Shown: one piece after another, positions 47,187 through 51,684 of the stretch
Position numbering within the stretch: position 1 is the first letter of the stretch
Layout: each line of letters starts with the position of its first letter
Assembly: GCA_045116295.1 (NCBI GenBank)
Contig: JBGULQ010000008.1
Coordinates: forward strand, 13,147 to 77,146
Source: Alphaproteobacteria bacterium
GTDB taxonomy: Bacteria; Pseudomonadota; Alphaproteobacteria; RF32; CAG-239
DNA length: 64,000 bases
Direction of reading: 5' to 3'
The notes under the pieces: generated by a model
Databases searched by the model: none
What the model saw: only the letters and a program-made list of their open reading frames with translations
What the model was told of the DNA's origin: nothing
Program-made: the position numbers and the translations under genes

Positions 47187-48005
47187 TTATACAGATAAGA
47201 CTTCTGATTTGGCTTTTATAAAGAAATAGACAGCTTGGTTAATCGGAGTTACGTGAGAGCCATTATATAATCCGCTCGAAACACTGACCGAACTGGTACG
47301 TCCTTTGGTCGGGGTAGTACTCGAGCCATTAAGACGATATGCAACTGCGTGAGTTCCTGATGCTCCACCTTCTTGGCATAAATAGTTATTGGCATCAATA
47401 TTAACGCTATCTGATCCACCGGCTTTGGCACCTGCCAATAAGTGGTAGTGGCTTGGAACAGCAGGAAGACTTTCTGCCTGAGTTGTCTGAATATCGGTCG
47501 CAGAATTGCCTCCAAGCCCTCTCAAAAATTTGCCGCGATAGTCCGGTACATTAAAGGTTGTGACACCATTTCCGGCACCAAATTTGGTGCCAATAAGGTT
47601 ATATAGCTCAGGATAACTTTCTCTTTCTACTTCTTGTCCGTCACACAAAAGCCAATTGCCATGGTTGGCTGATTGTGCAGAGGCCTTGATATCGCCAACC
47701 GGCTGTAAAGCATTAATTATTGACACGACATTGCTTCCAACTCGACTGCTCATGCTATCAACTTGACTTTTAGTAACTACGTCACCGCTCAGTAAAGCAT
47801 TGCCGACATTTTTAATACGGTGTCCGCCCATATTGATATCGCCCTGCATGGCAACACGTCCGTCACGCAAGAATGTTTCGTTAAAGCCGGAAGCAAAATT
47901 ATCATCCTCTTCATCGGCATGATCTGAAACAATGTCGATATCATTGAGACGATCTTGTTCCCAGTTATGAACTCTGGTAAATTTTCCTTGTGAATCAAAA
48001 GGCAT
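47187..48005 (-). CDS. phage tail-collar (MdpB-like) fibre protein, orphan
   Basis: 272 aa with MGGHRIKNVGNALLSGDVVTKSQVD (a fibre shaft motif) and NWLLCDGQEVERESYPELYNLIGTKFG..TFNVPDYRGKFLRG (the Phage_Tail_Collar motif). Confidence 0.8.
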   Translation of the reverse strand: MPFDSQGKFTRVHNWEQDRLNDIDIVSDHADEEDDNFASGFNETFLRDGRVAMQGDINMGGHRIKNVGNALLSGDVVTKSQVDSMSSRVGSNVVSIINALQPVGDIKASAQSANHGNWLLCDGQEVERESYPELYNLIGTKFGAGNGVTTFNVPDYRGKFLRGLGGNSATDIQTTQAESLPAVPSHYHLLAGAKAGGSDSVNIDANNYLCQEGGASGTHAVAYRLNGSSTTPTKGRTSSVSVSSGLYNGSHVTPINQAVYFFIKAKSEVLSV

Positions 48006-48008
48006 TTG

Positions 48009-48083
48009 TTTTCTCCAATAAAAAAACCGCCCATTTTACGAGCGGCAGGTTAATAAAAAAGCGGAAACTTATCGTTTCCGCCA
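48009..48083 (-). repeat. leader repeat copy A: two tandem intrinsic-terminator hairpins followed by RBS and ATG of the tail-collar gene
   Basis: A 57-nt core (ccgcccatt...tttccgcca) is identical to 51461-51517. The minus strand reads GCGGAAAC-GATAA-GTTTCCGC-TTTTTT, then CCGCTC-GTAAAAT-GGGCGG-TTTTTT, then TTGGAGAAAA..ATG. Confidence 0.85.
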
Positions 48084-48114
48084 GGGTTAGTAGCTTTGTC
48101 TTTTTTAAATAACT

Positions 48115-48429
48115 TTATTTGTGTTTCCAGTTATACATAGTATATAAAGGTCTTTGACAAGTACATGAAATTGGTGAATCTATTATATTCCATATACGAG
48201 GATGCCAATTAAACATGAGAGATATTTGCATACAAAAATAAATAAACAGCATACCAATAAATATATATTGTACATCCCTATTATGGTACCAAAACCATAG
48301 TCCGCAAAGAGATAATGTCATAGTATAGAGTACGTGATTACAAAAACTATAGCTCCATCCCCTGTATAAGTAAGCTATTAAGACAGTAATCAGACATCCG
48401 ATGTAAAAGGCTAATGTCAGCTTCTTCAT
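48115..48429 (-). CDS. small 3-TM hypothetical protein
   Basis: 104 aa and Trp/Tyr-rich. Its ATG overlaps the stop of an upstream 37-codon ORF (ATGA). Confidence 0.55.
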   Translation of the reverse strand: MKKLTLAFYIGCLITVLIAYLYRGWSYSFCNHVLYTMTLSLCGLWFWYHNRDVQYIFIGMLFIYFCMQISLMFNWHPRIWNIIDSPISCTCQRPLYTMYNWKHK

Positions 48430-48539
48430 TTTTCAAACCTACTACTCGAAAACAAATAAGCTTCTTGATCAAAAAAACTATAATTAGCAAACAAATAACC
48501 TAAAGACAAACCGATTATAAAATATATTACCTTTCTCAT
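48426..48539 (-). CDS. 37-aa single-TM peptide (not in the ORF track)
   Basis: My own translation is MRKVIYFIIGLSLGYLFANYSFFDQEAYLFSSSRFEK*. It is translationally coupled (ATGA) to the 104-aa ORF. Confidence 0.4.
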   Translation of the reverse strand: MRKVIYFIIGLSLGYLFANYSFFDQEAYLFSSSRFEK

Positions 48540-48620
48540 GCACGACCTCTATTAAAATAAATAATATTTTGAAGTTAATATTTTATTTATTTTGACCAAA
48601 TTTATCTTTGTAACGGACTT

Positions 48621-48809
48621 TTATTTGATCCATTCATTATTAACGGTATTAGGCACATCTGTTGTTTGTAATTCATTTACAGATTTTTCGGGATTTTGGT
48701 TGGGGGTGATGTAATAATATTCACTTTCCCCGGGTTGAGGATTTTGCCTTTGTATCGGGTGTTTTCCGTTAAAAACACCTTGTAAATATTCATAGGTTGT
48801 GTCAGGCAT
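48621..48809 (-). CDS. 62-aa protein consisting almost only of the shared MPDTTYEY N-terminal module
   Basis: Its first 51 aa differ at 3 positions from the first 51 aa of the gene at 51440. The DNA at 48657-48830 has 7 mismatches against 51288-51460 by my count. Confidence 0.55.
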   Translation of the reverse strand: MPDTTYEYLQGVFNGKHPIQRQNPQPGESEYYYITPNQNPEKSVNELQTTDVPNTVNNEWIK

Positions 48810-48855
48810 TGATTTTCTCCAACAAAAAAAATCAATTCGGGGGCTCTCTTATGGA

Positions 48856-49194
48856 TTACATGTTTGCATCAATTCGCGACGTGTTATAATAATCGAATAT
48901 GTGGGGCCAGTATATAAATGTCCCCAACAACGATAGTAAAAGAAAAATCTCGAATGATATTATATAATATTTTTTGAACACGGGAGATTTATATTTGTAA
49001 TGGATAAATTTTGTTATACATGCAAATAACAAAGAAAAATCAAAAATTACAAAGAAGATATTAAACGGGAATTTGCCAAGGTAGATTTCTATTTGGAGAT
49101 CAAGCAGAAATAAGCTGTTAAGAAACAAGAAACATCTCATATATCTCATTATTTCTCTAAAAACCACACCCTTATCTTTTTTGAAAAATTTCAT
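48856..49194 (-). CDS. small 3-TM protein, paralogue of 50315..50671
   Basis: 112 aa. MKFFKKDKGVVFREIMRYMRC... aligns over its full length with MKFFKKDKGIVFRNFIRDARC... Confidence 0.6.
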   Translation of the reverse strand: MKFFKKDKGVVFREIMRYMRCFLFLNSLFLLDLQIEIYLGKFPFNIFFVIFDFSLLFACITKFIHYKYKSPVFKKYYIISFEIFLLLSLLGTFIYWPHIFDYYNTSRIDANM

Positions 49195-49240
49195 TTGTGC
49201 TTCCTATCAGTCGTCTACATTTTTTAACAATAATAATAAA

Positions 49241-50278
49241 TTACTTCTGACCTTTGGTATTAAAATATGTTCCGCATTTGGAATATTTACCAGCATAATT
49301 TAAAATATAATTGAAAGGACAATCCGATGAAACAAAAAAGTCAGCATCTTCATCAATAACTTTGCAAGCGTCTTTCAAGCTAACTCGTTTCTCATCTTCT
49401 TTGGTTAATTTTACCTTATCCTTATCAATGTTTTTTTCTTCCGCAACTTCACTGATAATCATATGTTCTCTCAATGCTTCAATAAAATCTAACGGAGCCT
49501 TAAAACGTTCTTCTTGCGTCCCCCAATCAGCCCTTTTGTAAAAATCGTTAATATCCGTATATTTTTCATCAGAAGCTCTTGCCAATAGAGCCATTTGGTC
49601 ATTTTCCGCTATTCCTATTTCTTCTTTGAATTTTTCTCTCACTTTATTCGGATAATTAACCATTTCATATCCTTGGGCTTTGCAAAACTCCGGATACGCA
49701 TAAGTATGACGATATATCTCACCCACAGCAAGCCCTAAATGAAAAGCAGATCTATTCGTATCAGGCATATATTTATCTTTCACTTCAAACATACCAAAGA
49801 TTCCCAGAAAAACCAAAATTGTAAAAATGATAGGGAATCGTGTTAGAAAGCTTCTTTGAGGTTCATCAACATTTTGTTTTGCAGGTCGTAAAGCAAGAAT
49901 TAAATGGGTAATCGCAGTAATACCTGAAATCAGATATATACTCCATCTGATTTCAGGGAAAAAGGATATATCAACATCAAAAGTTAATGCCATTGTATAA
50001 AGTAAGAGAACATTAGCCAGAATATACCATGTTCCTGAACTACCAAAAGACCTGGAACGTTTTTGTATTAATGCAGTCAAACAATATATCACAAGGAAAA
50101 ATACGATAATGTATGATATAAGCTCAAAAACACAAAACTTAGTTATTATCCCAAGCAACAAAACAGCTGTTATGTAAGGTATACGATAAATAATTCCTTT
50201 GTAAGAAAAAAATAGTTTTAAAATATTCCCGGAAAATAAAATTTGATTTGCTTTTTCAAAAAACTGTTTAAATTGCAT
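49241..50278 (-). CDS. hypothetical protein: N-terminal 4-5 TM domain plus a roughly 170-aa soluble C-terminal domain
   Basis: I prefer the ATG at 50278, after AAGGAGAAAG. The product is 345 aa. I recognise no family. Confidence 0.55.
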   Translation of the reverse strand: MQFKQFFEKANQILFSGNILKLFFSYKGIIYRIPYITAVLLLGIITKFCVFELISYIIVFFLVIYCLTALIQKRSRSFGSSGTWYILANVLLLYTMALTFDVDISFFPEIRWSIYLISGITAITHLILALRPAKQNVDEPQRSFLTRFPIIFTILVFLGIFGMFEVKDKYMPDTNRSAFHLGLAVGEIYRHTYAYPEFCKAQGYEMVNYPNKVREKFKEEIGIAENDQMALLARASDEKYTDINDFYKRADWGTQEERFKAPLDFIEALREHMIISEVAEEKNIDKDKVKLTKEDEKRVSLKDACKVIDEDADFFVSSDCPFNYILNYAGKYSKCGTYFNTKGQK

Positions 50279-50314
50279 GATCTTTCTCCTTGTGGCAATC
50301 CTATAATACATTAT

Positions 50315-50671
50315 TTATTCATCAAAAAGAGGAACGTATCTATTATCTAGTTTGGAATATGTAAGGTATGATAATGTATGTTTGCAGTAAAGTACAAAAC
50401 CTATTATTGAAAGCAACATGAGTACCTGACTAAATAAGACATAGTATCTTTTTAGTTTTCTGATTTTGAATTTGCGATATATAAATTTGGTCAAACAAGA
50501 ACCGATTAACATAAAATCAAAAAAATAAAAGAATGTATCCCACACATTATTTTGATGATGTAATTCTATTTGATAAATAATTAGGAATATATTATTTATC
50601 CATAAGACACATCTAGCATCTCTTATAAAATTTCTAAAAACTATACCTTTATCTTTTTTAAAAAATTTCAT
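50315..50671 (-). CDS. small 3-TM protein, paralogue of 48856..49194
   Basis: 118 aa with the same N-terminal MKFFKKDKG motif and the same topology. Confidence 0.6.
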   Translation of the reverse strand: MKFFKKDKGIVFRNFIRDARCVLWINNIFLIIYQIELHHQNNVWDTFFYFFDFMLIGSCLTKFIYRKFKIRKLKRYYVLFSQVLMLLSIIGFVLYCKHTLSYLTYSKLDNRYVPLFDE

Positions 50672-50707
50672 TGGTGTCCCTGTGTAAATGAGTGATTTAA
50701 CAATTTA

Positions 50708-51440
50708 TTATTTCTTTCTGTAGTTGCTTATAGAATTATGTAGAAGATTCTTGCCTTCTCCCGCTAATTTATTGATTATTGAGCGTATTATAGGACGTTC
50801 AACATTGTTGCCAAAAGCTTTCATTCCTCCATATGTACCTAATCCGCCACTAATTCCGCCTAGCGATGCATCAACAATAACATCTTTGGCATTGTTATTC
50901 TCATTATTACCATATCCGTCTAATGCCGACATTGCAATATTATTTTTATATATTTGTGATGATTTTACCCACCATGGTGCGGTTTTGGAATATTTGAATA
51001 GGGGAACACGGTTAGCTATTGAACCAACTCCCTCCGCAATGCGCGTATGCTATCGGATGTTCTTTGCGGGTTTGTTTTAGGATATTGCGTCTATTGTCAC
51101 GTGCTTCTTTATATCCACGACTAAAAGCTTCCCCGATGCTTTCTTGTTTATTATTGCCCAACATATTGCCTACCGCATACCCTGCCCCTTTTATTCCGCC
51201 TTCAATCTCATCGGCAAAACCGGCAGAAAGACCGTTTAGGGCGGCACTTGTTAATCCTTCGGATGTTTGTAGAATATTATTAGATATATCTGTTGTTTGT
51301 AATTCATTTACAGATTTTTCGGGATTTTGGTTGCGGGTGATGTAATAATATTCACTTTCCCCAGGTTGAGGATTTTGTCTTTGTATCGGGTATTCTCCGT
51401 TAAAAACACCTTGTAAATATTCATAAGTTGTGTCTGGCAT
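50708..51440 (-). pseudogene. glycine-zipper-rich protein with the MPDTTYEY N-terminal module, split by a frameshift near 51012-51049
   Basis: The first frame, 51440..51012, gives 142 aa. The second frame is open from 51049 down to 50708: HTRIAEGVGSIANRVPLFKY...ASLGGISGGLGTYGGMKAFGNN... I traced the two frames by hand and they overlap by about 38 nt. Confidence 0.6.
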
Positions 51441-51443
51441 TGA

Positions 51444-51517
51444 TTTTCTCCAACAAAAAACCGCCCATTTTACGAGCGGCAGGTTAATAAAAAAGCGGAA
51501 ACTTATCGTTTCCGCCA
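51444..51517 (-). repeat. leader repeat copy B: the same tandem terminator hairpins, followed by RBS and ATG of the MPDTTYEY gene
   Basis: See copy A. Outside the identical 57-nt core there is one substitution and one A-run length difference. Confidence 0.85.
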
Positions 51518-51537: not shown

Positions 51538-51572
51538 GTTCCAGGGTTCAAATCCCGTCCGCTTCTATACCA
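51538..51572 (+). other. degenerate tRNA 3'-half-like fragment (T-arm, acceptor and CCA), inverted relative to tRNA-Lys
   Basis: gttCCAGGGTTCAAATCCCgtccgcttctataCCA compares with the tRNA-Lys 3' half tCCAGGGTTCGAATCCCtgcgcgcctaCCA. The T-stem no longer pairs fully. Confidence 0.5.
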
Positions 51573-51607: not shown

Positions 51608-51684
51608 TGGTAGGCGCGCAGGGATTCGAACCCTGGACCCACTGATTAAGAGTCAGTTGCTCTAGCCAACTGAGCTACGCACCC
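51608..51684 (-). tRNA. tRNA-Lys (anticodon CUU), CCA encoded
   Basis: The reverse complement is GGGTGCG-TA-GCTC-AGTTGGCTA-GAGC-A-ACTGA-CTCTTAA-TCAGT-GGGTC-CAGGG-TTCGAAT-CCCTG-CGCGCCT-A-CCA. I folded the cloverleaf by hand. The acceptor stem contains two G-U pairs. Confidence 0.9.

Follow-up and report, generated by a model that had tools for sequence, protein, structure and literature searches.

Gene content of the block beside tRNA-Lys

The window analyzed here is a stretch of 64,000 nucleotides (nt) from contig JBGULQ010000008.1 (assembly GCA_045116295.1, positions 13,147 to 77,146) of an uncultured gut alphaproteobacterium, and the subject of this report is a block of seven open reading frames (ORFs) at 51440..48115 on its minus strand which encodes short toxin modules and small membrane proteins. 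We read this block as a probable decayed array of polymorphic toxin/immunity cassettes beside a tRNA-Lys gene. The small membrane genes would be the immunity genes of a lineage-specific polymorphic toxin system which stayed intact while their cognate toxins decayed, an interpretation to which we assign a probability of roughly 0.65 from the sequence comparisons described below. Genomes used in these comparisons are designated by G-numbers (that of the window being G000) and loci by L-numbers, some of the latter being metagenome contigs or scaffolds (e.g. L117, L118).

The island region had a GC content of 32%–35% compared with approximately 39% in the rest of the window. All of the ORFs were present at the coordinates given here, on the minus strand like every other feature listed unless stated, and a ribosome-binding site (RBS)-like motif was found upstream of each start. 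The island begins just downstream of a tRNA-Lys(CUU) gene (51608..51684, identified with ARAGORN). A first leader (51441..51517; repeat D3) carries two hairpin plus T-run elements, positions 51516-51494 and 51480-51460 being terminator-like, and its RBS immediately precedes the start codon of the first gene, T1 (50708..51440). T1 encodes an N-terminal module joined to a Gly-rich putative toxin and is broken by a frameshift close to 51046, with frame A ending at 51012 and frame B, which includes a 74-amino acid (aa) ORF, occupying 51046..50708. T1 is followed by I118 (50315..50671; 118 aa, three hydrophobic segments, allele a), the proposed cognate immunity gene for the T1 C-terminus, and by P345 (49241..50278; 345 aa, five hydrophobic segments and an all-alpha domain), an apparent accessory gene at the site of a lost toxin. 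That toxin, a T1 variant which precedes I112 in genome G003, is represented in the window by its last five codons and stop (K N V D D *) at 49207..49224. Next is I112 (48856..49194), which encodes a 112-aa paralogue of I118 and is an orphan candidate immunity gene in the window. It is followed by a 62-aa ORF (48621..48809) with the N-terminal module of a Tlde1-type toxin, T3, the toxin domain of which is deleted, and by a T3 tail relic (48583..48621) which retains the last 12 T3 codons (KVRYKDKFGQNK*) out of frame with the 62-aa ORF. The last two genes, P37 (48426..48539; 37 aa, one hydrophobic segment) and P104 (48115..48429; 104 aa, three hydrophobic segments, C-terminal CxC tail), overlap by ATGA and are proposed to provide co-immunity and immunity, respectively, to T3.

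The block runs out in the relic of a third I-family gene (48091..48124; repeat D4), which retains the first nine codons with the start changed from ATG to ATA (ATA AAG TTA TTT AAA AAA GAC AAA GCT) and is cut off at a second leader copy (48006..48083). This second leader is 91% identical to the first, marks the end of the cassette block and lies directly upstream of a gene for a tail-collar fibre-like protein (47187..48005; 272 aa, PF07484, E 8.6e-20), which was the constant right-hand neighbour of the cassette block in all arrangements seen. Terminator-like hairpins were confined to the two leaders and to the positions after the tRNA and after the tail-collar gene, and the seven ORFs between the leaders thus form a single uninterrupted co-directional block. 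The order of cassettes differed among G000, G003, G016, L057, L058 and L065, and relics of both toxin and immunity genes were present. In the window all three toxins are dead (T1 by the frameshift, as assembled; the T1 variant reduced to its 18-nt relic; T3 by internal deletion) while I118, I112, P37 and P104 are intact. The plus strand carries, at 51538-51572 between the tRNA-Lys terminator and the first leader, a stretch similar to the T-arm and acceptor end of a tRNA, which may be an attachment-site relic.

The I118/I112 paralogues and their pairing with T1

I112 and I118 were 43% identical (68% positives) over 109 residues aligned without gaps (E 7e-31) and have the N-terminal motif MKFFKKDKG[VI]VFR in common, which bears out the original prediction, made from the DNA alone, of two strongly diverged paralogues with a shared start. 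The first 45 nt of the two genes were identical at 37/45 positions, and the shared 5' ends were detected as repeats D2/D4; over the first 13 codons the number of nonsynonymous substitutions per site (dN) was 0.047, the remainder being diverged. Membrane segments throughout this work are those seen in Kyte-Doolittle hydrophobicity profiles. By this measure each paralogue has three hydrophobic segments (residues ~21-37, 41/46-65 and 75-101), the third being strongly hydrophobic and the first two moderately so, with conserved polar residues N26 and D52. The co-linear layout of three transmembrane segments which had been predicted corresponds to these three hydrophobic segments; under a strict threshold (19-residue window, 1.6) neither I112 nor I118 scored as a three-transmembrane protein.

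No match to I112 or I118 was found in Pfam, NCBIfam, PHROGs or PDB sequences. A profile search against 1.84 billion representatives returned only the I112 cluster and one spurious repeat match, and in a database of 5.8 billion proteins the I family comprised only three clusters (78%–98% identity). Membership of a known housekeeping membrane family, which had been named as the outcome that would overturn the prediction, was not seen in any of these collections, and by the same searches the I family is very narrowly distributed, without detectable relatives elsewhere.

Three alleles of I118 were distinguished, allele a in G000, G003 and G016, allele b in L057, L065, L117 and L119, and allele c in L059 and L060. 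Codons 1-9 and 63-118 were the same or almost the same within and between alleles, and strong divergence was confined to codons 10-62. When a sliding window was applied to T1 together with I118, a hypervariable block was found to cover the final ~190 nt of T1 and the spacer together with codons 14-63 of the I gene, with 50%–87% identity between strains compared with 97%–100% in the flanks; its only interruption is a short conserved stretch where the I gene starts. T1 itself was intact in G016 and metagenome contig L117, where it encodes 243 aa, and was present in in-frame deletion forms of 136 and 141 aa in L065, L119 and G003. The C-terminal type of T1 and the partner allele were concordant in 6/7 loci, the pairings listed being a/a twice, b/b three times, c/c once and d/I112 once. 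The variable block, which pairs the toxin C-terminus with the first two hydrophobic segments of its partner, points to a possible seat of specificity.

Island ORFs were intact in other genomes and metagenomes, with ratios of nonsynonymous to synonymous substitution (dN/dS) of 0.07-0.3. In the variable block dS was saturated and dN/dS was ~0.1-0.3 (Nei-Gojobori by region); no region exceeded 1, so that positive selection is not supported, and the block looks like a set of old alleles shuffled by recombination rather than the product of recent positive selection. Between I112 and I118 the synonymous sites were saturated (proportion of synonymous differences, pS, 0.75) and so no ratio could be estimated. 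The dN/dS comparison proposed with the original prediction gave no sign of positive selection across strains.

Several arrangements bear on the history of the I-family cassettes. In G003, I112 lies directly after a T1 variant with a different C-terminal tail; the KNVDD* relic upstream of I112 in the window is the 18 nt left of that toxin, and P345 occupies the former toxin position. The nucleotide sequence of I112 was 100% identical in G000, G003 and L065, although the neighbouring tail-collar gene had a dS of 1.16 between G000 and G003, which indicates recent transfer of the cassette between diverged genomes. I118 alleles were also kept after T2-P42 where T1 was absent.

T1 itself is followed by I118 or I112 at the loci of G000, G003 and G016. 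Homologues of T1 with 30%–35% identity were found in eight other genomes of the genus. Where the sequence downstream was present (G005, G018, G011, G001, G022, G002 and G019) each T1 homologue is followed by an ORF of 96-121 aa with three hydrophobic segments, and in three of these genomes tandem triplets of diverged partner paralogues were present. A scan of GTDB species genomes yielded 13 further T1 loci, all in metagenome-assembled genomes of uncultured gut Alphaproteobacteria, 11 of them with a readable, normal downstream region. All 11 contained one to three tandem ORFs of 96-107 aa with two or three scored hydrophobic segments, and the first partner ORF began 17-23 nt past the toxin stop in 10 of the 11 (166 nt in L109). 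Within this second partner family variability was highest in segment 1, in a part of segment 2 and where segment 3 begins, with a conserved loop between segments 2 and 3, a pattern similar to that of the I118 alleles. At L106 (CASEYY010000004.1, 2501-3433) we observed a T1-type gene whose C-terminus has been exchanged for one with cysteines and a hydrophobic segment, and after it two different ORFs (174 and 127 aa), which also have hydrophobic segments; this looks like a joint replacement of C-terminus and partner.

Five observations led us to read the small membrane genes as immunity genes: their adjacency to toxin genes is conserved, tandem copies occur, toxin and partner share a variable block, orphan copies persist after T2-P42, and intact partners lie beside dead toxins. 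We propose that I118 and I112, as alleles or paralogues, provide inner-membrane immunity against the Gly-rich T1 type. The earlier suggestion of diversifying immunity is partly supported, by adjacency, tandem copies, the joint variable block and retention beside dead toxins, but it is not matched by a dN/dS above 1, and one of the seven pairs was discordant. For this pair we infer a membrane topology, direct binding, protection and an action of T1 at the membrane, as follows. By the positive-inside rule the N-terminus of I118 would be cytoplasmic (residues 1-20 include seven K/R, and segments 2 and 3 are joined by a KFKIRKLKR loop), and the variable part (segment 1, the short outer loop and segment 2) would face the periplasmic leaflet. 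There it may bind the variable C-terminal Gly/Ala/Ser-rich helices of T1 and prevent them from acting at the inner membrane. The toxin C-terminus and the variable part of I118 would together determine specificity, with recombination yielding new pairs, and in the strain of the window the membrane genes would act defensively against toxins of relatives.

The Tlde1-type toxin, P345 and the shared N-terminal module

The 62-aa ORF had been taken for an orphan module gene, a description which has to be replaced. In G003 its full-length counterpart is a protein of 221 aa which matched the Pfam domain PF10908 (Tlde1_dom) with 36.8 bits (cut-off 30.1, E 5.8e-9) and also matched YkuD slightly below the cut-off (E 1e-4). 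Since the window retains nothing of this gene beyond the module and the final 12 codons (48583-48621), the ORF is the product of an internal deletion which removed the toxin domain of T3. In G003 the P37/P104 pair sits after the intact Tlde1-type toxin, and in G041 a 47%-identical Tlde1-type toxin with a different N-terminal module is followed by ORFs of 41 and 94 aa in which the ATGA overlap is kept. The 94-aa ORF was 34% identical to P104 (E 2e-8) and the 41-aa ORF 29% identical to P37 (E 3e-4). At the seven other loci of Tlde1-like toxins (35%–43% identical) which were read in the genus, one to three ORFs, often tandem paralogues, come after the toxin, and these have two to five hydrophobic segments. 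P37 and P104 had no Pfam or NCBIfam match, and P104 is unrelated to I112/I118. The ATGA overlap noted earlier between genes for a single-segment peptide and a three-segment protein was confirmed in the DNA, the two products having one and three hydrophobic segments, respectively. We propose that P37 and P104 form a translationally coupled, two-protein membrane immunity against a Tlde1-type toxin of the L,D-transpeptidase fold.

The gene between the paralogues, P345, was likewise as predicted, with five hydrophobic segments (four to five transmembrane segments had been expected) and a soluble domain. Its start at 50278 has AAGGAG 8 nt upstream, a site which is missing from a longer ORF of 356 aa. 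In the AlphaFold model helices were placed at residues 33-47, 52-75, 81-99, 108-130 and 144-170, and residues ~170-335 formed a confident all-alpha domain (predicted local distance difference test score, pLDDT, ~90). This domain has four invariant Cys in the alignment and no Foldseek match in the PDB (best E 3.7); by the positive-inside rule we infer a periplasmic location for it. Homologues of P345 fell into 34 clusters (40%–99% identity), none with a Pfam domain. Full-length P345 occurs in few genomes of the genus, with weak matches of the soluble domain in larger proteins of many others. The arrangement seen in the window was also found at L065 and L119. Membership of P345 in the toxin system was considered and rejected, as its neighbours in five other genomes are unrelated and lack a module-bearing toxin, and we propose instead that it is an unrelated passenger or accessory gene which replaced a toxin gene.

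The N-terminal module shared by T1 and T3 is ~50 aa in length, follows the pattern M-x-[DE]-T...L.G[IV]FNG..P[IV].R..P..G[EQ]S.YY and was found in 15/29 genomes of the genus, often in tandem arrays. It is fused to differing C-termini, Tlde1 (PF10908) among them, and downstream of each toxin lies a small ORF containing hydrophobic segments. At least two other short N-terminal modules ('..Y.NMSLREELETRF..', '..KKEMTTREFLEQQLADYN..') were observed on the same toxin domains at L087 (G041:C43, 206-2711), L071-L073 and L088-L096, from which it appears that the N-terminal modules are themselves interchangeable. The characteristics by which polymorphic toxins are recognized (PMC3482391) were thus found in this genus, namely a conserved N-terminal module with varied C-terminal toxin domains, a small downstream gene which covaries with the toxin domain, and orphan cassettes with recombination among cassettes.

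Arrays of toxin and partner genes were also observed between phage regulator-like genes and terS/terL at L045 (G024), L046 (G006) and L077 (G002). The window's prophage has the same regulator, terS and terL (G000:C8:79534-82683), with only ~480 nt at the array slot, so that the slot is empty in the genome of the window where G006 carries a toxin array.

Candidate delivery routes were sought in five whole genomes (G000, G003, G016, G024 and G010). The sheath protein TssC of type VI secretion systems (T6SS) was not found in any of the five, and delivery of the toxins by this route was rejected. Colicin-like uptake through a TonB-dependent receptor, by way of the N-terminal module, was also rejected, as no such receptor scored above the cut-off in the same genomes. 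An 821-aa homologue of VirB4 was present in 5/5. The only transporter near the island is one ABC_membrane/ABC_tran gene in the conserved flank, beyond a U32 peptidase gene and a tRNA, and there is no membrane-fusion gene between it and the island.

Alternative readings, known systems and implications

A number of results weigh against the immunity interpretation and have to be set beside it. The hydrophobicity of T1 peaks at only 1.3 (Kyte-Doolittle, 15-residue window), that is, the protein is without a strongly hydrophobic helix; it had no glycine-zipper match in Pfam, and the AlphaFold2 model was unusable (mean pLDDT 46.6). For these reasons the membrane action of T1 is a guess. The 96-100-aa family of distant T1 partners had no detectable homology to I112/I118 (hhalign E 0.64). 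For two other partners E was 0.034 and 0.34, and in a hidden Markov model (HMM) comparison with shuffled sequences the signal was marginal for the G022 partner and absent for that of G019. As the hhalign and HMM signals are absent or marginal, our claim for these partners is one of shared architecture and position, not of homology. A putative internal I118 promoter (TTGGCA-16-TATAAT, 11/12 positions of the sigma-70 consensus in G000 and G016) was rejected, being absent from other alleles and orphan copies. For the Tlde1-type toxins, no precedent for membrane-embedded immunity against such an enzyme was located in the literature. The sole discordant pair, on the 1405-nt metagenome scaffold L118, combines the b-type T1 C-terminus seen in L117 with allele a, and either is a real cross-pairing or arises from a chimeric scaffold. 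Lastly, every arrangement ends in an I-family gene or relic, whether after T1, T2-P42, P104 or P345, and this constancy could mean that I is a general element of the cassettes and not a T1-specific partner.

That last point leads to an alternative in which the I-family gene is a generic terminal cassette element, either a recombination landmark or a shared accessory membrane factor, with no specificity for T1. The discordant pair would fit, as would the conservation of the first 13 codons between paralogues which are otherwise diverged. Same-module arrays in G024, G006, G010 and G001 contain no I-family gene, however, and three-segment ORFs of this size follow distant T1-type genes but not other toxin types. 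The variable block, moreover, covers both the 3' end of T1 and the 5' half of the I gene, and we regard the generic element as unlikely.

Against two further alternatives the strongest argument is that the partners are retained without toxins. In the first, the small membrane proteins would be holin-like export or release factors for toxins which have no signal peptide, in the manner of a holin/peptidoglycan-hydrolase secretion or lysis cassette. Some of these signal-less toxins have domains expected to act in the periplasm (Tlde1, and a GH108-like domain recognized by eye only), the partners resemble holins in size and number of segments, related arrays lie in prophages just upstream of the terminase genes, and the T6SS marker is missing from the five genomes. 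I118, I112 and P104 nevertheless gave no holin match in Pfam or PHROGs. The persistence of intact partners after deletion or frameshift of the toxin fits immunity and not a holin deprived of its cargo, and neither tandem triplication of diverged copies nor covariation with the toxin C-terminus is expected of an export pore. We consider a holin function improbable.

In the second, proteins of the T1 type would be phage virion or ejection proteins, and their partners superinfection-exclusion proteins which block insertion at the inner membrane of the lysogen, as with T4 Imm or P22 Sie. T1 and one distant homologue did match, weakly (E ~1e-7), phrog_5880, a phage family of 661 positions and of unknown function. 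In G002 a T1-type gene and a membrane ORF lie directly upstream of terS, a Gly-rich protein of 452-462 aa is encoded at the same position in G024 and G006, and a prophage lies ~4 kb from the island. The module of T1 is nonetheless the same as that on Tlde1-type and other toxins, each of which has its own small partner, and many arrays of T1 with partners are chromosomal, located by pgk and a dedicated regulator, and the flanks that were read contained no phage genes. In the prophage of the window itself the toxin slot is empty, superinfection-immunity families went unmatched in Pfam, and we give this explanation little credence. Chance hydrophobic ORFs, which an AT-rich island may generate through A/T-rich codons for F, I, L and K and to which the moderate hydrophobicity of I118 segments 1 and 2 might be attributed, are very improbable given that several genomes and metagenomes have the ORFs intact at dN/dS of 0.07-0.3, dS being saturated in the variable block, that each is preceded by an RBS-like motif and that the ATGA overlap is conserved at 29%–34% protein identity.

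The interpretation of the membrane genes as immunity genes can also be set against systems already described. Immunity to pore-forming colicins and microcins is provided by small polytopic inner-membrane proteins which intercept the membrane-inserting toxin domain and are encoded beside the toxin gene. No Pfam match to the colicin or microcin immunity families was found among the membrane proteins of the island.

The closest proven analogue is CdzI of the Caulobacter crescentus Cdz system, a small protein with three predicted transmembrane domains and no homologues for which immunity to glycine-zipper toxins was proven genetically (PMC5380434). The likeness lies in a small protein, here with three hydrophobic segments and no detectable relatives, which is encoded beside a Gly-rich toxin in an alphaproteobacterium. 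CdzC and CdzD are only 84-86 aa, have RTX-like signals and are exported by the adjacent type I system cdzAB (PMC5380434), whereas T1 is ~243 aa, has another kind of N-terminal module and no dedicated exporter next to it, and is polymorphic, its partners being allelic. In contact-dependent growth inhibition (CDI), ionophore toxins vary at the predicted immunity-contact positions, and their CdiI partners show high polymorphism (~30% identity inside a group) and act in a strictly cognate manner (PMC11630599), a polymorphism matched here by the 43% identity of the paralogues and the joint variable block. The CDI toxins, however, are C-terminal domains of the very large CdiA, are delivered by a type V route and fold, according to predictions, as bundles of five helices (PMC11630599); the island has no CdiA or CdiB, and T1 is without a confident fold model.

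For the Tlde1 family, Tlde1a is toxic if targeted to the periplasm, and immunity to it comes from one protein, Tldi1a, which in the study concerned was expressed with a sec signal (PMC9638812). The G003 form of the toxin deleted in the window resembles this system in its PF10908 domain followed by candidate immunity genes. It differs in that the candidates are a pair, one of 37 aa with one segment and one of 104 aa with three, and in the lack of TssC in the five genomes. Polymorphic toxins carried by prophages are represented by the MuF toxins (PMC12226406) and by Bxa of Bacteroides, which is neutralised by two immunity proteins (PMC11699363). As in those systems, a conserved N-terminal domain is joined to diverse toxins in prophages of gut bacteria, and related arrays here adjoin terS/terL. 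The module described here is only ~50 aa, however, with no Pfam MuF match on the toxins scanned, the island of the window lies outside the prophage, and the immunity candidates are membrane proteins rather than soluble binders or enzymes.

A wider reading, which we offer as a speculation more likely to fail than to hold, is that these are T6SS-independent, partly prophage-borne polymorphic toxins with interchangeable ~50-aa modules, several classes of which, including the Tlde1 type, are countered by fast-evolving inner-membrane proteins and not by soluble binders. The consistent presence of membrane proteins opposite Tlde1-type enzymes, together with the missing T6SS marker, raises the question of how such toxins are delivered and neutralised. 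If this reading is correct, there would be a membrane-level step common to the toxins (docking, entry or activation at the inner membrane) at which immunity acts, and a delivery route not yet described. If the immunity interpretation of the island holds, I118 and I112 would constitute a family of membrane immunity proteins which is new and very restricted in its distribution, and the island would offer a clean natural case of a strain keeping its immunity genes while the toxins decay, in a group of gut Alphaproteobacteria which has been little studied and is represented only in metagenomes.

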